Assembly (NCBI GenBank): GCA_038884455.1
Contig: JAWABU010000004.1
Span: 906 to 64,905 of the forward strand
Direction of reading: 5' to 3'
Origin: Thermoplasmatota archaeon
Lineage (GTDB): Archaea > Thermoplasmatota > E2 > DHVEG-1
DNA length: 64,000 nt
In this document: one piece after another, positions 44,853 through 60,930 of the stretch
Layout: each line of letters begins with the position of its first letter
Numbering within the stretch: the first letter of the stretch is position 1
Notes under the pieces: generated by a model
Told to the model about the DNA's origin: nothing
What the model saw: only the letters and a program-made list of their open reading frames with translations
Databases searched by the model: none
Translations under genes and position numbers: made by a program

Positions 44853-47800
44853 TTATCCTTCTATCTCTCGGAGTAGGATAATATCGTAAGTTCTGGCGAT
44901 GTCAACTTCGTCTTCTCGTAGGTCGAGATATCCAGCAAAACGATACGTTACGTTTTGACCGAGTTCTTGTCTAGTTTCTTCAACGGTCACATTGTAGCGT
45001 CCTGGTTTAAGTTCAACGGTATATCGACCATGTTCATCTGATCTTTTTGATGCATATTGTGCGGTGTTATTTTCGTCAGAATAATCAGGTATAAAGTCGA
45101 TTGAGATGTTAGCTGTTGGTAAACCGTTGTACAGCGTTTTACCTTGGATGGTTACTGATTTTTTAAGAAGTGCAATATTATAGGTTGCAACACCTTGGCC
45201 GATTGGTATATCCAGAGCTCCAGTAAAGCTGTAGAATCCTTGTTCACCATCGTAATTCACCGTGACGTTGTATGAACCTGGTTGGAGTTGTACAGAATAC
45301 ATACCAGTTTCATCAGTAGTTGCAGATGTGCTCTGAGCAGTATTATTCTTCACAGATCTGTTCGCAGTAAATTGTATAGGTATGTTACCAAGAGGTGTCG
45401 TTCTATGTTGAGTTGATCCTGTGACCGTAATTGGTGCGTAGGTGATTGAGATATTTTGAACCTTTGTTTTGTTTGCCTCAAGGTTGATGGTTTGTTCTTT
45501 TGCATAATCAAGATATTTTGTGGTACTGTTGCGTTTGGTGACATTGAGGACATAATTCCCAGGTATAATAGAGCTAAATGAGTATGAACCATCAGCACCG
45601 GTAATCATCGTGTTGACGACTTTTCGATCAGTTTCTGTATAAATCAGTTCAACAGTGACATCAGGCATTTCTTCTCCATGGTCAACTTTGTTGTTTTTGT
45701 TTGCATCAAAGTAGACGATACCGTTGACTGCAGCTGGTTGTGGTTTTGACATGTTATACGTGTTGTTCCCCGGGTAGATAAACACATAGTTTTCATGGAT
45801 TCTGAAATCGTCATATACTGCTTGGATTAGATAGATACCAGGCATGAGATCTGATGCCTGGTAGTATCCATGTTCATCAGTGGTGAGTTGTCGTAGATTT
45901 TCATAACCATATTCTTTTGGCTGACCAGGACGTGTTGGGTCATTGAGGGGGTAGAATTCTTTGATTTCTATGAGCGTAATTGAAGCATTATGAAGCGGTG
46001 TATCGATCGATGTATTATAGGATTCATCATAGTCGTTGTTTGCATATACGTAGCCTTGGATAACTCCGGGTATAACTTCGATGTTGAGCGTCCGTTCGTA
46101 GTTTGTTCCTTGTTTTCGCATTGCTTCATCATCGGTAATGGGTGCTTGTTCTGGATCAGTTTCACTGTTGAAATGAACGGCTTTTATGGGAAATGCATTC
46201 ATCCCGAGCTCTGGATTTCGCCGTAACTCAAGAGTTATGTTTCCTGCAGGTGCAATGACTTGGAACATGCCGTTAGCTGCTTTTGTAGTATCATGATCAA
46301 TTCCAAGAGATGTTCCATATAATGAAATGTTTTTCCGTACAACTACTTGGACGTCCAATGGTTCACCTTTGTACGTTATTGTTCCGTTGATTTTTGCTCC
46401 TTCATAATATTTTGCAATTACGACCGAAACAAATCCTTGAGTTCCCGGGTAGGGTAATGTTGAAACGTAATCTGCGGTGAAATGTTTTAGACCCCAACAG
46501 GGGACTTGAAGGAGCTGATTTTTTACAGTTTCTAAAACTGTACTCTCCCCAAGATAGGTTCGATAGAACATCGTATTGTTATACGCAGGTTTTGATACAA
46601 CTGCAGTATCGGTGATTGAAATACTTCTTCGTTCAGATGCGGACATGGCGTTGAGTTGTGCAGCAGTCCAGGTTTGTTCAGATCCGATCTGCTGGCCGGT
46701 TTGAGGATTGACTTTATAGCCTTTGTATCGTACCTGGATGAAATCATCTTCGGCATTGTGAAACCGTTCACTACTTGCGGTTCGTAATGCATGTAACACT
46801 AGGCTTTTATCACCAAGGAAACCAAAGATGTTGAAAATGTCACGGTCATATCCTTCGGCGCCATAATATCGAATACTTCGTCCGGTTGCTTCTTGGAGAT
46901 CATGGTATAACCAGGTTACTTGCTCTTCAGTTAATGTATGGTTTAAAACCGCGGTGATATCATGATAATACACATTTTCGATAAATTGTTCACCGACAAC
47001 AAGATCTTTACTTAATTCTTTATCATATTCTGATCCGATTGGTTTTAAATATGATGGTGCTTTTTGTGGTTTTTCAATCCAGGAAAGGAGATCAGAATAG
47101 GTAATATTTACATAGGTTACGTTTTTCACGGTAAATGGATCATGGGTGATATTGCTGAGATGTTTTTGAAGCACTGCTACAGTTGTCGGTGAAAATGATT
47201 TTTCATGCTGTTGGAAATCGCCTTCAAGGAGGCGAATGATGAAGACGATGACTGCTTCTTTTTCACTAGTTGCCGTATGGAGGTTAGCTGCAGGTGGTAT
47301 ACCATCTTGGAAGTTGTCAGCAACGGTTGGATGATCACCAACTGCTACTTCATAAAACCCGTAATCCCACCATGAGATGAACGCAGGTCGATCAACTGGA
47401 TTTTCGATATGTGTGTCTTGTTGTTTGAGCCATGAGAAAGCATCAACCCAGTATTGTTCTTTATATGAACTTGAGCCAAATGCTCCTGAAAAGTTTTTTC
47501 CGAAGTAATCGATTTTAAAATTACTCGTTTTATTTTTAGATGCTGCGTAGGGTACTGCTGCATCAAGTGATAAGAAGACATTTGGCATCATAATTAAAAA
47601 GAAGATAAATAAAACGCCAAGAACCTGATACATTTTGATTCCTTTTCTGAGACTTCGGAGTCCACCACCAGCATGTCGAATGTTTTTAATCATGCTGCTG
47701 TAGTTTACTTTTTCAATGAGATACCAGATGACAAAACCTGCAAGGAGTGCAACAACCGGGACAACATCATTGAGGAAACGACCTGCGGTCCCCGCAAGCC

Positions 47801-55868: not shown

Positions 55869-56909
55869 ATGGATTCCTATGAATTGATTGTACGCAATGC
55901 TGTTGAGGTTGTTACCCATGATGAACTGCGTGGAGTATTGCAAAAAGATAGTCCAAAGATGTATATTGGTTTTGAACCGTCAGGTTCAGTTCATCTTGGT
56001 TGGATGATTTGCATTCAAAAAATGAAAGATTTTCTAAGCGCTGGATTTGAATGTATCATTTTGCTTGCTGATTGGCATGCGTATATTAATGATAAACTCG
56101 GTGGCAATCTTGAGAAAATTCAGCTCTGTGGAACGTATATGGAGCATTGTTTTGCTGCACTTGGTCTTGATACGTCAAAGATTCGTTTTGTATATGCTCA
56201 TGAGTATGTTGGTGATTCGAAATACTGGGAGTTAGTTTTGAAAACCGCGAAGGCAACGTCGGTTGCTCGGGTGAAGCGTGCGATGGATATCATGGGTCGA
56301 AAAGAGGAGGATATGGAGAAAGATTTGAGTAAGTTGTTGTATCCGGTTATGCAGGTTTCTGATATTTTTTATCTTGATGTCGATGTTGCATTTGGAGGTA
56401 TGGATCAACGTCATGCACACATGCTTGCTCGTGATGTTGCACGAAAGTTGAATCGAAAATCCCCGGTTGCTGTTCATACACCGCTTCTGAGTGGTTTGCA
56501 GGCTGGTAGTCGGATGGATCCTATTGAGTCGAAGATGAGTAAAAGTAAGCCTGATTCTATGATTTCGATTCATGATTCATCGGAGACTGTAAAACGAAAA
56601 TTAGGTAAAGCGTTTTGTCCGGAGAAGCAGGTTGAGGGTAACCCGGTTTTGGAGCTCTGCAAGTATGTTATTTTTCCTTGGTTAGATGGTGCTGTTTTTG
56701 TGATCGAACGTCCTGAGAAGTTTGGCGGTAATCTTGAGTTTGACAGGTATGATGCTTTAGAAAATGCGTTTCTGCAGGGGATTCATCCGTTGGATTTGAA
56801 AAATGCTGTTGCGACGTATATAACTCAGATGCTTGAACCGGTTCATAGGTATTTTCAACAGCATCAAGAGGTTCTTGAAAAGATGAGAAGTATTGGTATT
56901 ATTCAGTGA
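55869..56909 (+). CDS. tyrS: tyrosyl-tRNA synthetase (archaeal type)
   Basis: KMSKS motif (KMSKSKP) and a class I HIGH-like region GFEPSGSVHLG. Confidence 0.85.
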   Translation: MDSYELIVRNAVEVVTHDELRGVLQKDSPKMYIGFEPSGSVHLGWMICIQKMKDFLSAGFECIILLADWHAYINDKLGGNLEKIQLCGTYMEHCFAALGLDTSKIRFVYAHEYVGDSKYWELVLKTAKATSVARVKRAMDIMGRKEEDMEKDLSKLLYPVMQVSDIFYLDVDVAFGGMDQRHAHMLARDVARKLNRKSPVAVHTPLLSGLQAGSRMDPIESKMSKSKPDSMISIHDSSETVKRKLGKAFCPEKQVEGNPVLELCKYVIFPWLDGAVFVIERPEKFGGNLEFDRYDALENAFLQGIHPLDLKNAVATYITQMLEPVHRYFQQHQEVLEKMRSIGIIQ

Positions 56910-57211
56910 ACCTCTTTGTTTGCCTGCGTTGTTTTTGGTGATTGTTCAACGATGTGGTCAATTATTTTTTTGGTTTGTCTGCGGATTTCTGCGATTTCTT
57001 TTGGGACGAATTGGTATTGTTTCATGACAACTTCTGAAGTGAAGATGAGTGTATGAAGAAAGATGGCTGGATTCCATTGTTCTTGTTCTGCTAGTTTGAA
57101 GACTTTATTGACGTTGTTGAGAACGTCCTGGGTTGTATAGCTTTGTGGTTGTTGGTTTTGATGTTCTGGGTTTTGGTTCATAGAATCACGCAGACCAGAG
57201 CAATCAACCAT
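56903..57211 (-). CDS. hypothetical protein
   Basis: No family recognised. 7-nt convergent overlap with the tyrS stop. Confidence 0.4.
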   Translation of the reverse strand: MVDCSGLRDSMNQNPEHQNQQPQSYTTQDVLNNVNKVFKLAEQEQWNPAIFLHTLIFTSEVVMKQYQFVPKEIAEIRRQTKKIIDHIVEQSPKTTQANKEVH

Positions 57212-57352
57212 ATTTAGGTCTTTCTGTGGAATAAAAGATTCTGAATGGTCGAACCATTTTTCACGTTATTTTTCTTCTAAATTTATATCACATATGATAC
57301 AATTTTTTGGTTTGTATTCTGCTCTGTGACCGAGTTTATATGATGGGTTGTG

Positions 57353-57832
57353 TTATCGGCGCTGGAATGTATTTTTCTTCAATATCAAGTTATCAATATC
57401 TTTATGAATATCTGGCGTCTGATCAATAATTTTTGGCATGGGAAGTTGCCGTGTCTGTTCGAGTGTCGAAAAGCGATAAATTTGTCCATGGAGGCGGGTC
57501 ATCTCACGATCAATTTGCTCTTGGAGTCTGAGATTTTGCTCTCTGAGTTCTTTGATCTCTTCTTTTAAATGAAGGATATAATCTTGGATAATAGGGTTTA
57601 CGTCTTCCTCCTGAACCATTTGGTTTACTTGCAGGTTTCCCTCTAACGACTGCTGGTTTACCCTGGTTGAGTGTACCTCTTGGTTTCCCACAGGGCATTT
57701 TATATCTTCAAGGTAATGCCAGAGTGCCTCTCTGAGAATTTCACTGTTGCTTTTTCCTTGTTTGTGAAGCTGGTCTATGATTCCTTCCTCTTGATGGGTT
57801 AGTTTCATCGCAATTGTTCTACCCATATGCAT
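57353..57832 (-). CDS. ribbon-helix-helix (CopG-like) protein with coiled-coil C-terminus
   Basis: RHH motif MKLTHQEEGIIDQLHKQGKSNSEILREALWHYLE and a heptad-rich C-terminal region. Confidence 0.6.
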   Translation of the reverse strand: MHMGRTIAMKLTHQEEGIIDQLHKQGKSNSEILREALWHYLEDIKCPVGNQEVHSTRVNQQSLEGNLQVNQMVQEEDVNPIIQDYILHLKEEIKELREQNLRLQEQIDREMTRLHGQIYRFSTLEQTRQLPMPKIIDQTPDIHKDIDNLILKKNTFQRR

Positions 57833-57964
57833 TCCATCCTAGTTACAAAAGGTAAACATATTTCCGGCATATAAATGTTGATGTCTTGATTAGTTTTTGA
57901 TGTATTGATCACAATGATTTGACGAGTGTTAGGCTAAAAAGATCTTGCAGTATTCGTTTGTTTT

Positions 57965-58807
57965 CTACATACGATACATCTTGAATACCCACCCCTTTTT
58001 TGGTTTCTTTTGCTGATCTTTTGGTCCGGGGATGTTTGGTATGGTTGTTTCAACATGGGATTCAAGAGAGTGGTGTATCTGATGGTCGTGGATGCTTGGT
58101 TTTCGTGTTTCTTCAAGATAAAACATAATACGATCGAATTTATCATCGAGTCGTTTAATGGAATCTTTGACTTGTGTATAATACTCGGTCTGGAATGTAG
58201 TGTAGGTATCTCTGAGATATTGCTCTTGGGCAGTGTATCTCTTTTTCCACTCTTGAAGTTCTTCTTCGAGTTGTTTGGTGCGAAGTGATAATTCATTGAT
58301 ATATTGATTGAGATAGTCATGCGGTACGTTTATTGGTTGTTGGCCTGTGTGGTATACCGGTTTCTCCTCCTGTTGGTATACCACTTTCTCCTGATTTTGG
58401 TATACCGGTATACCAGGTTGGTATACCGTTTTCTCCTGATTTTGGTATACCGCTGTATCATTTTGGTATACCTTTTTCTCATTTTTCTCCTGTTGTTTTT
58501 GGTATACCGGTTGGTATACCGTTTTCTCCTGATTTTGGTATACCGGTATACCAGGTTGGTATACCGCTTCACCGATTTTCTCCTGTTGTTTTTGGTATAC
58601 CGGTTGGTATACCGAGCTAAAATAATTTATGAGTGCTTCGCGCATAAGTGTAGTCGGTGAAATGCCTTGTTTTAAAATGCGATTTACGATTTCTTCTTCT
58701 TCAGCAGTAAGTTTTAATGAGAGAACTTTTTTCATATTCTTTTTCCCTCGCGATTTTGGAAAGTACATGCAGAGAATTGACTCTGCAATCATCTGGTTTT
58801 TCGTCAA
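57965..58807 (-). CDS. ribbon-helix-helix protein with VYQ tandem-repeat region and coiled-coil C-terminus
   Basis: RHH motif LSLKLTAEEEEIVNRILKQGISPTTLMREALINYF. Repeats VYQP/VYQN/VYQK about 14x. Likely start is the Met at 58735. Confidence 0.6.
   Translation of the reverse strand: MTKNQMIAESILCMYFPKSRGKKNMKKVLSLKLTAEEEEIVNRILKQGISPTTLMREALINYFSSVYQPVYQKQQEKIGEAVYQPGIPVYQNQEKTVYQPVYQKQQEKNEKKVYQNDTAVYQNQEKTVYQPGIPVYQNQEKVVYQQEEKPVYHTGQQPINVPHDYLNQYINELSLRTKQLEEELQEWKKRYTAQEQYLRDTYTTFQTEYYTQVKDSIKRLDDKFDRIMFYLEETRKPSIHDHQIHHSLESHVETTIPNIPGPKDQQKKPKKGWVFKMYRM
58330..58620. repeat. array of about 14-15 copies of the palindromic octamer GGTATACC (higher-order ~135-bp duplication) inside the RHH gene
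   Basis: Direct reading: GGTATACC occurs every 12-30 bp. It encodes the VYQ repeats on the minus strand. Confidence 0.85.
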
Positions 58808-58925
58808 AATTCTTATTTTTTGAATTCTGAAGGTCTTACTTATAGTTTATTCCCTGTTGTCGGTACTTTTTTGATCACTTTCCGAGTACTCGAGAGGACC
58901 TAGAATAGAACAAGGAGTGAGATTT

Positions 58926-59138: not shown

Positions 59139-59437
59139 ATGTTGTCATCATCCTTGGTTGATATCTCCTCATGGTATATCTTTCTTATTTATTGTATTTA
59201 TACATTTTGAAGCAAAATGTCACAAAGATATGTAAAATTTTTAAAGGAAAAATTGTACGTTTTTAGTTCGTCTTTACTTTGGTACTCGAGCTGAGGAGAT
59301 TGTTTATGAAGAGCAACGAGGTTCCCTGTTTCACCAACGCAGAAGTGCCGGGGGAAGTCGTATTCCAATATATTTATATATGAAATCAGTATATACGCAT
59401 ATAAACACGTTTTAATACGTGTTGATAGGTGAAAGAT

Positions 59438-60204: not shown

Positions 60205-60420
60205 ATGCCGAAAGTTACCATAACATTAAGCGATGACATTTGGACTTGGTGGAAAAAAAATCCATGGATTAATCTTTCACAGCTTGCAGAACGAGAACTT
60301 CACAGAATTAGAATGCTTGAAGAACGCGTGCTTGGGAATTGTCCAAGCTGTGGAAATACAAAGCTGCGTTTTGATGGAAAAACATATTGTTGCTCAAAGT
60401 GCGGATATGTCTATGAATAG
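60205..60420 (+). CDS. zinc-ribbon protein
   Basis: CPSCG...(17)...CSKCGY C4 ribbon. Confidence 0.55.
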   Translation: MPKVTITLSDDIWTWWKKNPWINLSQLAERELHRIRMLEERVLGNCPSCGNTKLRFDGKTYCCSKCGYVYE

Positions 60421-60610
60421 AAAGTCACAACGATTCTGTCCTGAATGCGGATCAACTAATATCGACTGGGTGTTACCACAGCTCTGGTCAAAATGGCAAT
60501 GTAAAGATTGTGGGTATCAGGGTGCACTCATCGTTGAAGATGGAAAGATCGGTGATGAAATCAGAAGAGAATATCTTAAAAAGAACAAATTCAATACTAC
60601 TGGAAGGTAA
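60407..60610 (+). CDS. zinc-ribbon protein
   Basis: CPECGS...CKDCGYQG ribbon. The ATG at 60407 overlaps the previous stop by 14 nt. The six-frame ORF 60233..60610 was trimmed to this internal Met. Confidence 0.5.
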   Translation: MSMNRKSQRFCPECGSTNIDWVLPQLWSKWQCKDCGYQGALIVEDGKIGDEIRREYLKKNKFNTTGR

Positions 60611-60930
60611 TGCGTATGCTTGTTACAACAACTGATTCGATTCCTGGTAGAGACGTCAAAGAGGTTCTTGGGGTTGTATTTGGATCATGTGTTCAAACTA
60701 AACATATCGGGAAAGACATCAGAGCAGGACTGCGAAATGTTATTGGTGGGGAGGCTAAGAGTTATACTGAACTTCTTGAGGAGGCACGGCGAACCGCGAT
60801 GCAACGGATGATTGATGATGCAAAAAAACTTGGTGCTGATGCAATTATTGGTATGCGATACGCAACGGCGCAGACTATGGTTGGCGCTGCAGAACTTATC
60901 GCATTTGGTACCGCTGTAAAAACATATTAA
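60610..60930 (+). CDS. YbjQ/UPF0145 family protein (second copy)
   Basis: Same family pattern as 59677..59979. The ATG overlaps the upstream TAA (TAATG). Confidence 0.8.
   Translation: MRMLVTTTDSIPGRDVKEVLGVVFGSCVQTKHIGKDIRAGLRNVIGGEAKSYTELLEEARRTAMQRMIDDAKKLGADAIIGMRYATAQTMVGAAELIAFGTAVKTY

Follow-up and report, generated by a model that had tools for sequence, protein, structure and literature searches.

Background

Small ribbon-helix-helix (RHH) proteins such as ParR, omega and ParG bind as dimers to many short direct or inverted repeats at their own gene or promoter; in parC of plasmid R1, ten iterons of 11 bp flank the promoter. In the case of MetJ, one RHH dimer occupies each metbox and neighboring dimers cooperate. 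The repeats recognized by the lambda O protein fall in the stretch that links the parts for its two domains. SegB is an RHH-containing protein, and Noc is a ParB-like protein with an N-terminal helix. For omega and ParG, a single array serves as both operator and centromere (PMC5016525), and the binding repeats of lambda O lie within gene O itself, at ori-lambda (PMC5043065).

In this work we analysed a window of 64 kb (the whole stretch of 64,000 nucleotides presented here) from a Thermoplasmatota archaeon, which contains two adjacent RHH genes, here called big and small, and an array of the octamer GGTATACC inside the big gene. The locus shares with ParR/parC (type II; R1, pSK41), omega (pSM19035) and ParG (TP228; type Ib) the combination of an RHH protein and a short-repeat array at its own gene, and some orthologous loci (L013, L179, L182 and those of the L009 clade) have fields of repeats phased at 10-11 bp upstream of the gene, like the sites of those proteins. 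However, it differs from them in having no linked ParM, ParA or delta-type NTPase, in its chromosomal location with housekeeping synteny, in a predicted long coiled coil and MinD-like tail in place of a motor-interacting tail, in the position of the main-clade array within the coding sequence, and in the lack of detectable sequence homology past the RHH fold. The tandem 8-bp palindromic box, with two abutting GGTATACC pairs in the window, recalls MetJ and its metbox, but here most spacings are 9-12 bp or multiples, the 14 boxes lie within the gene and nothing indicates a co-repressor. Lambda O offers the parallel of candidate own-protein binding repeats inside the coding sequence; it is, however, a replication initiator of a different fold with 19-bp repeats, and neither the GC skew nor the adjacent genes here point to an origin. 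SegB (SegAB) is similar as an archaeal protein that binds DNA at specific sites and works with a segregation machine, but it is encoded beside the ParA-like SegA and no such partner was found here. The RHH structural prototype, CopG of pMV158, gives the best profile match, end-to-end over 39 columns; CopG itself has 45 aa and one operator, without linker, coiled coil or tail. Among 1.84 billion proteins, the family accounts for 28 clusters at 50% identity. No description of it was found in the literature.

The gene pair and its neighborhood

The features of the locus are given in Table 1. The ORF and start of the big gene match the ortholog alignment, and the domain layout is that of the AF2 model. 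An earlier note on this DNA had described two adjoining minus-strand paralogs with RHH N-termini, which is borne out by the present data: the first 46 residues of the two proteins are 39% identical (E 1e-9), and the small gene lies directly 3' of the big one in essentially all loci of sufficient length. The start given in that note, 56903, also takes in a third ORF of 102 aa that is unrelated to the pair. Neither the two proteins nor the third ORF could be assigned to a family with NCBIfam, PHROGs or Pfam.

Table 1. Positions of the features described in the text, in window coordinates
Feature	Position	Strand	Evidence or remarks
Big gene, 256 aa, QXL17_01485	57965..58735	-	RHH, disordered linker, long helix, basic/aromatic C-terminal tail (predicted)
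N-terminal RHH coding part, aa 1-40, MKKVLSLKLTAEEEEIVNRILKQGISPTTLMREALINYFS	58616..58735	-	hhalign to CopG, Pfam, AF2
Array of 14 GGTATACC boxes	58351..58613	.	Encodes disordered linker (V-Y-Q repeats); enrichment, internal repeats, DNA-level conservation in orthologs
Single long helix, aa 137-211 (75 residues), presumed coiled coil	58103..58327	-	AF2 pLDDT 91-98
C-terminal tail KKPKKGWVFKMYRM, putative amphipathic membrane-targeting or partner-binding peptide	57968..58009	-	Family conservation
Small paralog, 157 aa, QXL17_01480	57353..57826	-	RHH, short linker, coiled coil (predicted); without C-terminal tail
Weaker array in small-gene linker	57595..57689	.	GGGAAACC, GGTAAACC, GGGAAACC, AGTAAACC, CGTAAACC
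TGTTTACC, reverse-orientation box with one mismatch	57851..57858	.	25-32 bp upstream of small-gene ATG; single site, weak
AAACTATAAGTAAG	58835..58848	-	Counterpart of the promoter-like box AAAAAATATAAGTAC
10-bp palindrome CGAGTACTCG	58883..58892	.	Present; 9-mer CTCGAGTAC recurs at 59282-59290; no sign of belonging to the system

The neighbors of the pair in the window encode TyrRS, adenylosuccinate lyase and Pth2, and synteny to TyrRS is found in L001, L002 and L178. No partition NTPase (ParA/ParM, actin-like or Walker-type) was found beside the pair in the window or in the loci with neighbors that were inspected; the only ATPases near it are ABC-transporter subunits, accompanied by permeases. 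Homologs of the protein were not found in viral contigs, and scanning these contigs for paired boxes gave scattered single matches only, as expected by chance. The plasmid or viral partition origin suggested previously is thus not supported, given the absence of viral homologs, the conserved chromosomal neighborhood and the lack of a linked ParA/ParM in the loci examined. Unlike partition loci carried by mobile elements such as plasmids and viruses, the pair lies on the chromosome among housekeeping genes.

The N-termini are supported as members of the RHH (CopG/MetJ/Arc) superfamily by profile comparison and structure prediction. An hhalign comparison of the N-terminal profile A3 with CopG, whose sequence was confirmed as PDB 1b01, gave a probability of 87.6% (E 3.5e-6) over 39 of 41 columns, and a CopG-like repressor in PHROG was matched at E 5e-4. 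Of 21 members searched against Pfam, 18 matched DUF6290 (best E 2.5e-5), 13 RHH_1 and 6 NikA-like, all of them sub-threshold; the gathering scores of RHH_1 and related families were reached by none, the domain having just 40 aa. Searching the PDB with a profile of this alignment returned nothing significant, and only hhalign to CopG succeeded. The AF2 model has residues 1-10 extended and helices at 11-22 and 27-40 (pLDDT ~92), with an invariant G24 in the turn between the helices, in agreement with the CopG-like fold proposed for both proteins; the strand of an RHH protein pairs only in the dimer. Foldseek on 41 aa was uninformative.

The octamer array in the linker

GGTATACC occurs 15 times in the window, against 0.38 copies expected per 64 kb and a number reached by none of 100 shuffles. 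Fourteen copies are packed into 263 bp, the sole cluster in the 64 kb, so that the dense palindromic array reported in the larger gene is real and far above background; the fifteenth is at 47296, within an STT3/AglB glycosyltransferase gene. The centre-to-centre spacings are 8, 12, 13, 21, 24 and 36 bp. Twelve boxes are translated as xxG GTA TAC Cxx, giving V-Y-Q/H, and the other two (58407-58414 and 58545-58552) as GGT ATA CCg, giving G-I-P; both of the latter directly abut the next box. The array is internally duplicated as the earlier note had seen, although not as a simple unit of ~135 bp: a 93-nt unit is repeated (58416-58508 and 58509-58601, 87% identity) and further segments recur at an offset of 138 bp.

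For comparison we used about 50 orthologous loci from uncultured Thermoplasmatota. All orthologs with a strand of the KTIS[LM]KL type have an array in the same linker, with 7-16 boxes (7 in L001, 14 in the window), copy numbers that may be affected by mis-assembly since all sequences are metagenome assemblies. Palindromy, emphasized at first as the property of the octamer, is not conserved: orthologs carry GGTAAACC, GGTAGACC and TGTAAACC, and the GGT..ACC frame alone is common to all. In all, 33 kb of big genes contain GGTNNACC 403 times and 233 kb of flanking DNA 140 times; many of the latter copies make up a second cluster immediately upstream of the gene.

Codon usage in the linker follows the box. 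At 424 V-[N/D/Y] dipeptides, Val is encoded by GTA in 88% (background 15-22%) and followed by an NAC codon in 94% (26-38%), the preceding codon ends in G in 84% (18%) and the following one starts with C in 95% (17-20%). The residue after the dipeptide is Q, H, R, L or P, which covers all CNN codon boxes, whereas K and E hardly ever occur there. Full boxes are present at 347 of 460 linker dipeptides, as compared with 2 of 379 in unrelated ORFs. Copies in reverse complement have the matching Val codon (GTT-TAC for GTAAAC, GTC-TAC for GTAGAC), and off-frame copies exist as the G-I-P reading in the window. Moreover, footprinting of 16 close orthologs found variable sites at 5/56 positions in boxes and 50/154 elsewhere in the linker (p 4e-4). 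The boxes are ~10 times more conserved than the surrounding linker, and the information profile drops sharply at the ends of the 8-mer, with adjacent bases varying.

These data strongly support a DNA word, GGT-A-N-ACC, as the conserved unit rather than a peptide. It could be argued that V-Y-Q/V-N-Q is a functional peptide and that its DNA is uniform due to recent duplication or gene conversion, as the 93-nt duplications in the window, at 87% identity, are a sign of recent expansion and copy number differs between L001 and the window. This is extremely unlikely, since conservation ends at the 8-mer and the third residue is any that CNN can encode, and boxes also occur in the G-I-P frame, as reverse complements encoding V-Y-H and as non-coding copies. 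The linker is also predicted to be disordered (AF2 pLDDT < 50). Divergent members, whose RHH strand is unrelated, point the same way: they have no intragenic boxes or peptide repeats, and carry about 16-20 non-coding upstream iterons of 11 bp with a different sequence (TGTAGTGGA in L013, TGTATCACA in L179). The V-Y-Q peptide is, judging from these comparisons, a by-product of the DNA word.

Helical phasing was considered as a further argument and set aside as non-decisive, because the coding spacings of 9/12, 21/24 and 33/36 also fit decay of a 12-bp repeat unit; only the non-coding spacings of 10-11 bp can be used for this purpose.

Non-coding copies and RNA structure

In the L004/L009 clade, 4-6 non-coding copies of GGTTTACC with 10-11-bp spacing precede the ATG, and L182 has five upstream boxes in mixed orientation. 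Together with the fixed synonymous bases and the reverse and off-frame copies, they lend strong comparative support to the earlier suggestion that the array acts at the DNA level besides coding, and the repeats are indeed present in orthologs with nucleotide constraint.

Such constraint could also come from the mRNA, if the boxes formed structures controlling translation or stability. GGUAUACC is self-complementary, a leader GGUUUACC can pair with a coding-region GGUAAACC, and this leader-CDS pairing is contained in the MFE structure of L009. In the L009 clade, the upstream copies are all in the complementary orientation and 3' of the conserved promoter-like box. Predicted RNA folds are much more stable than those of shuffles, with z = -9.4 for the window array and z = -5.1 for the L009 leader plus CDS. 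However, any GGT..ACC array folds better than its shuffles, and the all-forward array of L008 has z -4.4; because arrays of one orientation are also strongly negative, folding z-scores cannot separate an RNA from a DNA role. In L002, L008, L026, L028, L032 and L034, boxes of one orientation with no complementary partner are equally conserved, the upstream boxes of L182 mix GGTTTACC and GGTAGACC, which are mutually non-complementary, and RNA pairing does not explain the co-variation with RHH beta-strand residues described below. A role in the mRNA is thus very unlikely.

Co-variation with the RHH strand

The sequence of the box co-varies with beta-strand residues 4 and 8, in what amounts to a handful of evolutionary events. 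A KTISLKL strand goes with GGTA[A/G]ACC, and KVLSLKL, found in the window and in L001, with GGTATACC. In the L006 group, K8->R8 is accompanied by TGTAAAC; the same pairing arose independently in L177, whose protein shares 89% identity with the K8 protein of L002, and in L177 E->D and K->N replacements turn the flanking G into T. In these K8->R8 lineages the box change is clean at one end only, since the other is constrained by coding. The box centre appears to be tied to strand residue 4 and the box edge to residue 8; these two residues align with Arg4 and Thr8 of CopG, which contact bases. The boxes in the small-gene linker are of the AA-centre type, which pairs with a Thr4 beta-strand, as in the small protein.

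The comparison of orthologs shows constraint on the nucleotides of the boxes, copies in either orientation and outside coding DNA, and co-variation of the boxes with the RHH beta-strand, a combination that leads us to read the array as candidate sites for the RHH domain. We consider it probable that these are double-stranded DNA sites acting in cis for the protein of the very gene that contains them, operator- or centromere-like and possibly part of a membrane tether; the binding itself, its stoichiometry, the membrane attachment and the physiological role are what we infer from it.

The sites might instead serve something other than the encoded RHH proteins, for example as iterons of a replication origin or for another chromosomal DNA-binding factor, in which case lambda O and ori-lambda would be the true analogue. 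Iteron arrays within an initiator gene are known from ori-lambda in gene O (PMC5043065), the array here is unique in 64 kb, and the 11-bp iteron fields of L013 and L179 look like plasmid iterons. Against it, the box follows the beta-strand of the adjacent protein, the cumulative GC skew has no inflection near 58 kb (a signal that is weak in archaea), and replication genes were not seen next to the pair, the loci inspected having neither Orc1/Cdc6 nor a Rep-like gene there, which makes another factor highly improbable.

If, as we prefer, the protein binds its own gene, swaps V4T/L5I and K8R should shift its preference toward GGTAAACC and TGTAAACA, and the family, with two independent K->R switches, would be a natural specificity table for RHH-DNA recognition. 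It would also be an exceptionally clear example from nature of a single piece of DNA with two codes, in which the array of binding sites dictates the residues of its own linker (V-N-Q, V-D-Q, V-Y-Q) family-wide.

Long helix, C-terminal tail and proposed mechanism

Within the family, conservation is highest in the long helix (..VKDSIKRLDDKFDRIMFYLEE..), with invariant columns in alignments A1 and A4, and the tail is kept to the final residue throughout the family. Similarity to MinD is found at the extreme C-terminus, where basic residues are followed by G-aromatic-x-x-R-L-F-G. The pattern match is closest in distant members, ending in KKKGFFGRLFS or ERKGFWGRLFG (KKGFLKRLFGG in MinD; ..EEKKGFLKRLFGG in E. 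coli), while the main-clade tail, KKGWVFQMYRM, is less alike and, unlike MinD, the protein has no ATPase domain. The hydrophobic moment of the tail, 0.41-0.80 versus 0.48 for MinD, is compatible with a membrane helix and not distinctive, the 90th percentile of the protein's own background being 0.55. The tail is a putative membrane anchor.

We propose that RHH dimers occupy the 14 boxes, probably one per 8-bp box with neighbors cooperating, as known from other RHH arrays, and that the long coiled coil would keep the subunits together. The many basic/aromatic tails gathered on the array could then bind a surface, most likely the membrane, in the manner of the MinD tail. One MinD helix alone is too weak a binder and depends on multimerisation (PMC8155659), and the array of dimers would supply this. 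Noc may be named as an analogue for such a DNA-to-membrane tether. Two consequences are likely: negative autoregulation, through an operator or roadblock within and upstream of the gene, and a single large nucleoprotein complex marking or tethering this chromosomal locus. The small paralog, lacking the tail, would bind related boxes or heterodimerise, modulating the complex.

A partition function is speculative, because no motor ATPase is linked. A bolder idea, which we hold to be doubtful, is a motor-less device for chromosome anchoring or segregation, where the protein would sit on a centromere-like array within its own gene with tails to the membrane and the small paralog would release or regulate it; the dual-use coding might be kept because the nascent N-terminal domain acts in cis. 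Such a device would give the replicon model's idea of membrane attachment a present-day example. This is an uncharacterised, rare, chromosomal family that seems to combine a head like that of a centromere protein with a MinD-like tail.

Upstream elements and divergent members

No exact box precedes the big gene in the window, which therefore shows no clear sign of a classical promoter operator. Most ortholog loci have the conserved element AAAAAATATAAGTAC at 55-200 bp before the big gene; it and its counterpart AAACTATAAGTAAG are promoter-like, and their function as promoter is putative. The palindrome CGAGTACTCG and the 9-mer CTCGAGTAC, which the earlier note took as possible operators (GTACTCGAG), are present as described, but their operator role did not hold up. 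With one mismatch allowed, CGAGTACTCG was found 7 times against 6.0 expected, which is chance level; L001, the closest ortholog, lacks it in its upstream region, and the elements are neither conserved nor related to the box.

In the most distant relatives, L180 and L181, TRF detected no tandem arrays. P0070 and P0069 have a common C-domain and differ in the type of RHH and in the presence of V-D-Q/H repeats, and a possible GCAATA repeat was noticed, by eye only, upstream of P0069.

Sequence constraint on the boxes

The octamer GGTATACC occurs 15 times in the 64-kb window against 0.38 expected per whole 64 kb, and 14 of these copies form an array inside the larger of two neighbouring genes (see table), as the earlier note had counted; the fifteenth lies within an STT3/AglB gene. 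Twelve array boxes are read xxG GTA TAC Cxx, encoding V-Y-Q/H, and the other two, each directly adjoining the next box, are read GGT ATA CCg (G-I-P). The higher-order duplication described in that note does exist, but as a 93-nt unit (87% identity) and further segments at a 138-bp offset rather than as repeats of about 135 bp.

Features of the window and of homologous loci
Feature	Position	Strand	Remarks
Larger gene	57965-58735	-	256 aa
GGTATACC array	58351-58613		inside the larger gene
Small gene	57353-57826	-	157 aa; neighbour of the larger gene
AA-centre near-boxes	57595-57689		in the small gene's own linker
102-aa ORF	56903-57211	-	no family match
Homolog of 102-aa ORF	L007 6294-6569
Probable homologs of 102-aa ORF	L001 8899-9165; L178 2666-2929
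Counterpart of promoter-like box	58835-58848		box present in upstream regions of most ortholog loci compared
ORF of about 100 aa	59677-59979	+	matches YbjQ_1 (putative heavy-metal-binding), E 8e-34
Its paralog	60610-60930	+	likeness recognised by eye only
71-aa ORF	60205-60420	+	overlaps second zinc-ribbon ORF
Second zinc-ribbon ORF	60233-60610	+
Larger-gene homolog, split	L052 835-1686		16 boxes
Small RHH-like ORFs	L181 3-143; 180-350		..KITISLSNEAEKALRERAKK..; ..KLCNFRLEEDLIEELNKITDNKTKFV..
Small-gene homolog	L008 4808-5257		N-terminus starts at L or V

In orthologs, the linker peptides carry V-N-Q or V-D-Q in place of V-Y-Q, while the DNA is always G|GTA|NAC|C; what is conserved is a word of DNA rather than a peptide. 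Among 424 V-[N/D/Y] dipeptides from the linkers of 45 distinct genes, Val is encoded by GTA in 88% (background 15-22%). C is the last base of the second codon in 94% (26-38%), G is that of the preceding codon in 84%, regardless of the residue encoded (18%), and C is the first base of the following codon in 95% (17-20%). The following residue is Q, H, R, L or P, representing all five CNN codon boxes, and almost never K or E, though these are plentiful elsewhere in the linker. Full boxes were found at 347 of 460 linker dipeptides versus 2 of 379 in unrelated ORFs, and information content falls sharply outside the 8-mer. Reverse-complement boxes use the matching Val codon, GGTTTACC (V-Y-H, GTT) being found where forward boxes are GGTAAACC, and GGTCTACC (GTC) where they are GGTAGACC. 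In 16 closely related genes, 5/56 sites vary in boxes versus 50/154 elsewhere in the linker (p 4e-4), and 4/21 versus 87/190 third-codon positions (p 0.02). These alignments show that the boxes are under DNA-level constraint.

Boxes also lie outside coding sequence. In the clade of loci L004 and L009, four to six GGTTTACC copies spaced 10-11 bp apart are present within 125 bp 5' of the ATG; at L018, L023 and L036 there are one to three, placed 25-35 bp upstream, and L182 has five of mixed type and orientation ahead of the gene and four more in the linker. Overall, GGTNNACC occurs 403 times in 33 kb of larger genes, whereas 233 kb of flanking DNA contain 140 copies, many of these in upstream clusters. 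A pure peptide repeat is extremely improbable and conflicts with the copies found off-frame, in reverse orientation and in non-coding DNA. The suggestion of the earlier note that the array could act on the DNA level besides coding is strongly supported by the fixed synonymous bases and the reverse and non-coding copies in orthologs, but its candidate operators, CGAGTACTCG and CTCGAGTAC, occur in the sequence without conservation or relation to the box.

A promoter-like box, AAAAAATATAAGTAC, is strongly conserved across clades 55-200 bp 5' of the larger gene, a position that implies either an extended leader or some further function, and a TATA-like TTATAAGAT lies about 25 bp from the ATG in some clades. 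In L052, which has the largest array, a break at the array divides the gene into two ORFs; it reflects either a frameshift (or pseudogene) or mis-assembly over the repeats.

The probable protein partner of the boxes

The ribbon-helix-helix (RHH) N-termini predicted earlier are well supported: the alignment of the first 40 residues with CopG (PDB 1b01, as verified from its sequence) runs end to end with 87.6% probability and E 3.5e-6, AF2 predicts with high confidence an extended stretch and then two helices, and RHH-clan Pfam families give sub-threshold matches in most members. The proposed pairing of the genes also stands, their first 46 residues being 39% identical, but the range assigned to the pair takes in the unrelated 102-aa ORF. 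The small protein in the window retains Thr4. In several small genes (L008, L053, L025 and L040) the conserved N-terminus starts at L or V (LGKVIALKL, VGKTIGLKL), which suggests TTG or GTG starts that ATG-only gene calling would truncate.

Comparison of orthologs shows co-variation between the box and the beta-strand of the larger protein. Strand KTIS[LM]KL pairs with GGTA[A/G]ACC, KVLSLKL (window and L001) with GGTATACC, and KTISLRL (L006 group and L178) with TGTAAACC and its reverse complement GGTTTACA. For homolog P0022 (locus L177), which has R8 and a C-domain 89% identical to that of the K8 protein of L002, a box change was predicted before its DNA was fetched, and the prediction held: the flanking base is T at 6/10 sites versus G at 9/9 in L002. 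These changes arise via E to D and K to N replacements, and several 3' flanks are now A. Homologs P0069 and P0070 have a common C-domain, with boxes only in the one carrying the KTISMKL strand. Members with unrelated strands lack intragenic boxes and have large upstream iteron fields of exact 11-bp period, such as about 16 copies of TGTAGTGGA in L013 and about 20 of TGTATCACA in L179. Positions 4 and 8 line up with CopG Arg4 and Thr8, which we take to be base contacts.

A role of the boxes in RNA would agree with strong predicted folds and with leader-CDS complementarity in one clade; however, it fails in L182 and in lineages with one-orientation arrays and leaves the protein co-variation unexplained, so that we consider it unlikely. 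Equally doubtful is that the boxes serve a foreign factor or a replication origin, which is without positive support.

AF2 predicts residues 47-135 of the larger protein, exactly the array-encoded part, as disordered, followed by a single helix (137-211, pLDDT above 90) and a flexible C-terminus. The family ending is K-K-G-W-V-F-Q-M-Y-R-M, and the tails of distant members read KKKGFFGRLFS or ERKGFWGRLFG, close to the membrane-targeting helix EEKKGFLKRLFGG of E. coli MinD. The hydrophobic moment of the tail is compatible with a membrane helix, but not distinctive; the tail may bind the membrane. A lone MinD helix binds too weakly and requires multimerisation (PMC8155659), which a box array loaded with coiled-coil dimers would provide.

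Proposed mechanism and relation to known systems

From these patterns we infer RHH binding to the boxes, its stoichiometry, membrane attachment and a physiological role. RHH dimers of the larger protein would load on boxes in or near their own gene to form one large complex, which would gather many tails and may keep the locus attached to the membrane, while the tail-less small paralog would compete or heterodimerise. The complex probably represses or roadblocks transcription. ParR is a repressor at its iteron-promoter. Omega and ParG likewise repress at their own iteron-promoters (PMC5016525).

The family would work like the RHH-iteron modules ParR/parC, omega, ParG and MetJ/metbox, and it has sites inside its own gene in common with lambda O and ori-lambda (PMC5043065). 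It does not qualify as a plasmid partition cassette, since no NTPase is linked to it in the loci inspected and it does not reside on a mobile element; the plasmid or viral likeness drawn earlier finds no support either in an adjoining partition ATPase or in homologs on the viral contigs searched. The most fitting description is an uncharacterised chromosomal family of RHH-coiled-coil-tail proteins, a new variant of the known modules, with a putative binding array usually written into linker-coding sequence.

Distribution and neighbourhood

The window matches a Candidatus Thermoplasmatota MAG, and each protein has only a few dozen homologs, which come without exception from uncultured Thermoplasmatota or metagenomes and carry no Pfam domain. 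When 1.84 billion proteins were searched exhaustively with a profile of the C-terminal domain, only 28 cluster representatives came up. Among about 60 loci fetched, an HMM scan found the larger gene followed by the small one in essentially all that were long enough to tell; the surroundings vary, TyrRS often being close by. The 102-aa ORF usually lies between the pair and the TyrRS gene, and may be a third neighbourhood member or merely syntenic with TyrRS. Several clades (L002, L177, L178 and the L006-clade loci), unlike the window, have a radical-SAM + HhH gene (PF04055/PF14716) directly 5' of the pair. In L181, two small RHH-like ORFs lie directly 5' of the divergent P0069, which has a possible GCAATA repeat in the 90 bp ahead of its start.

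Between the pair and an ABC transporter in the window, the two paralogous ORFs of about 100 aa flank small membrane ORFs. The 71-aa ORF starts with MPKVTITLSDD.., which resembles the strand of an RHH domain, and has a C-terminal CxxC..CxxC zinc ribbon that Pfam zinc-ribbon families match weakly; at 1.5 kb from the gene pair, it may encode a further small RHH regulator.
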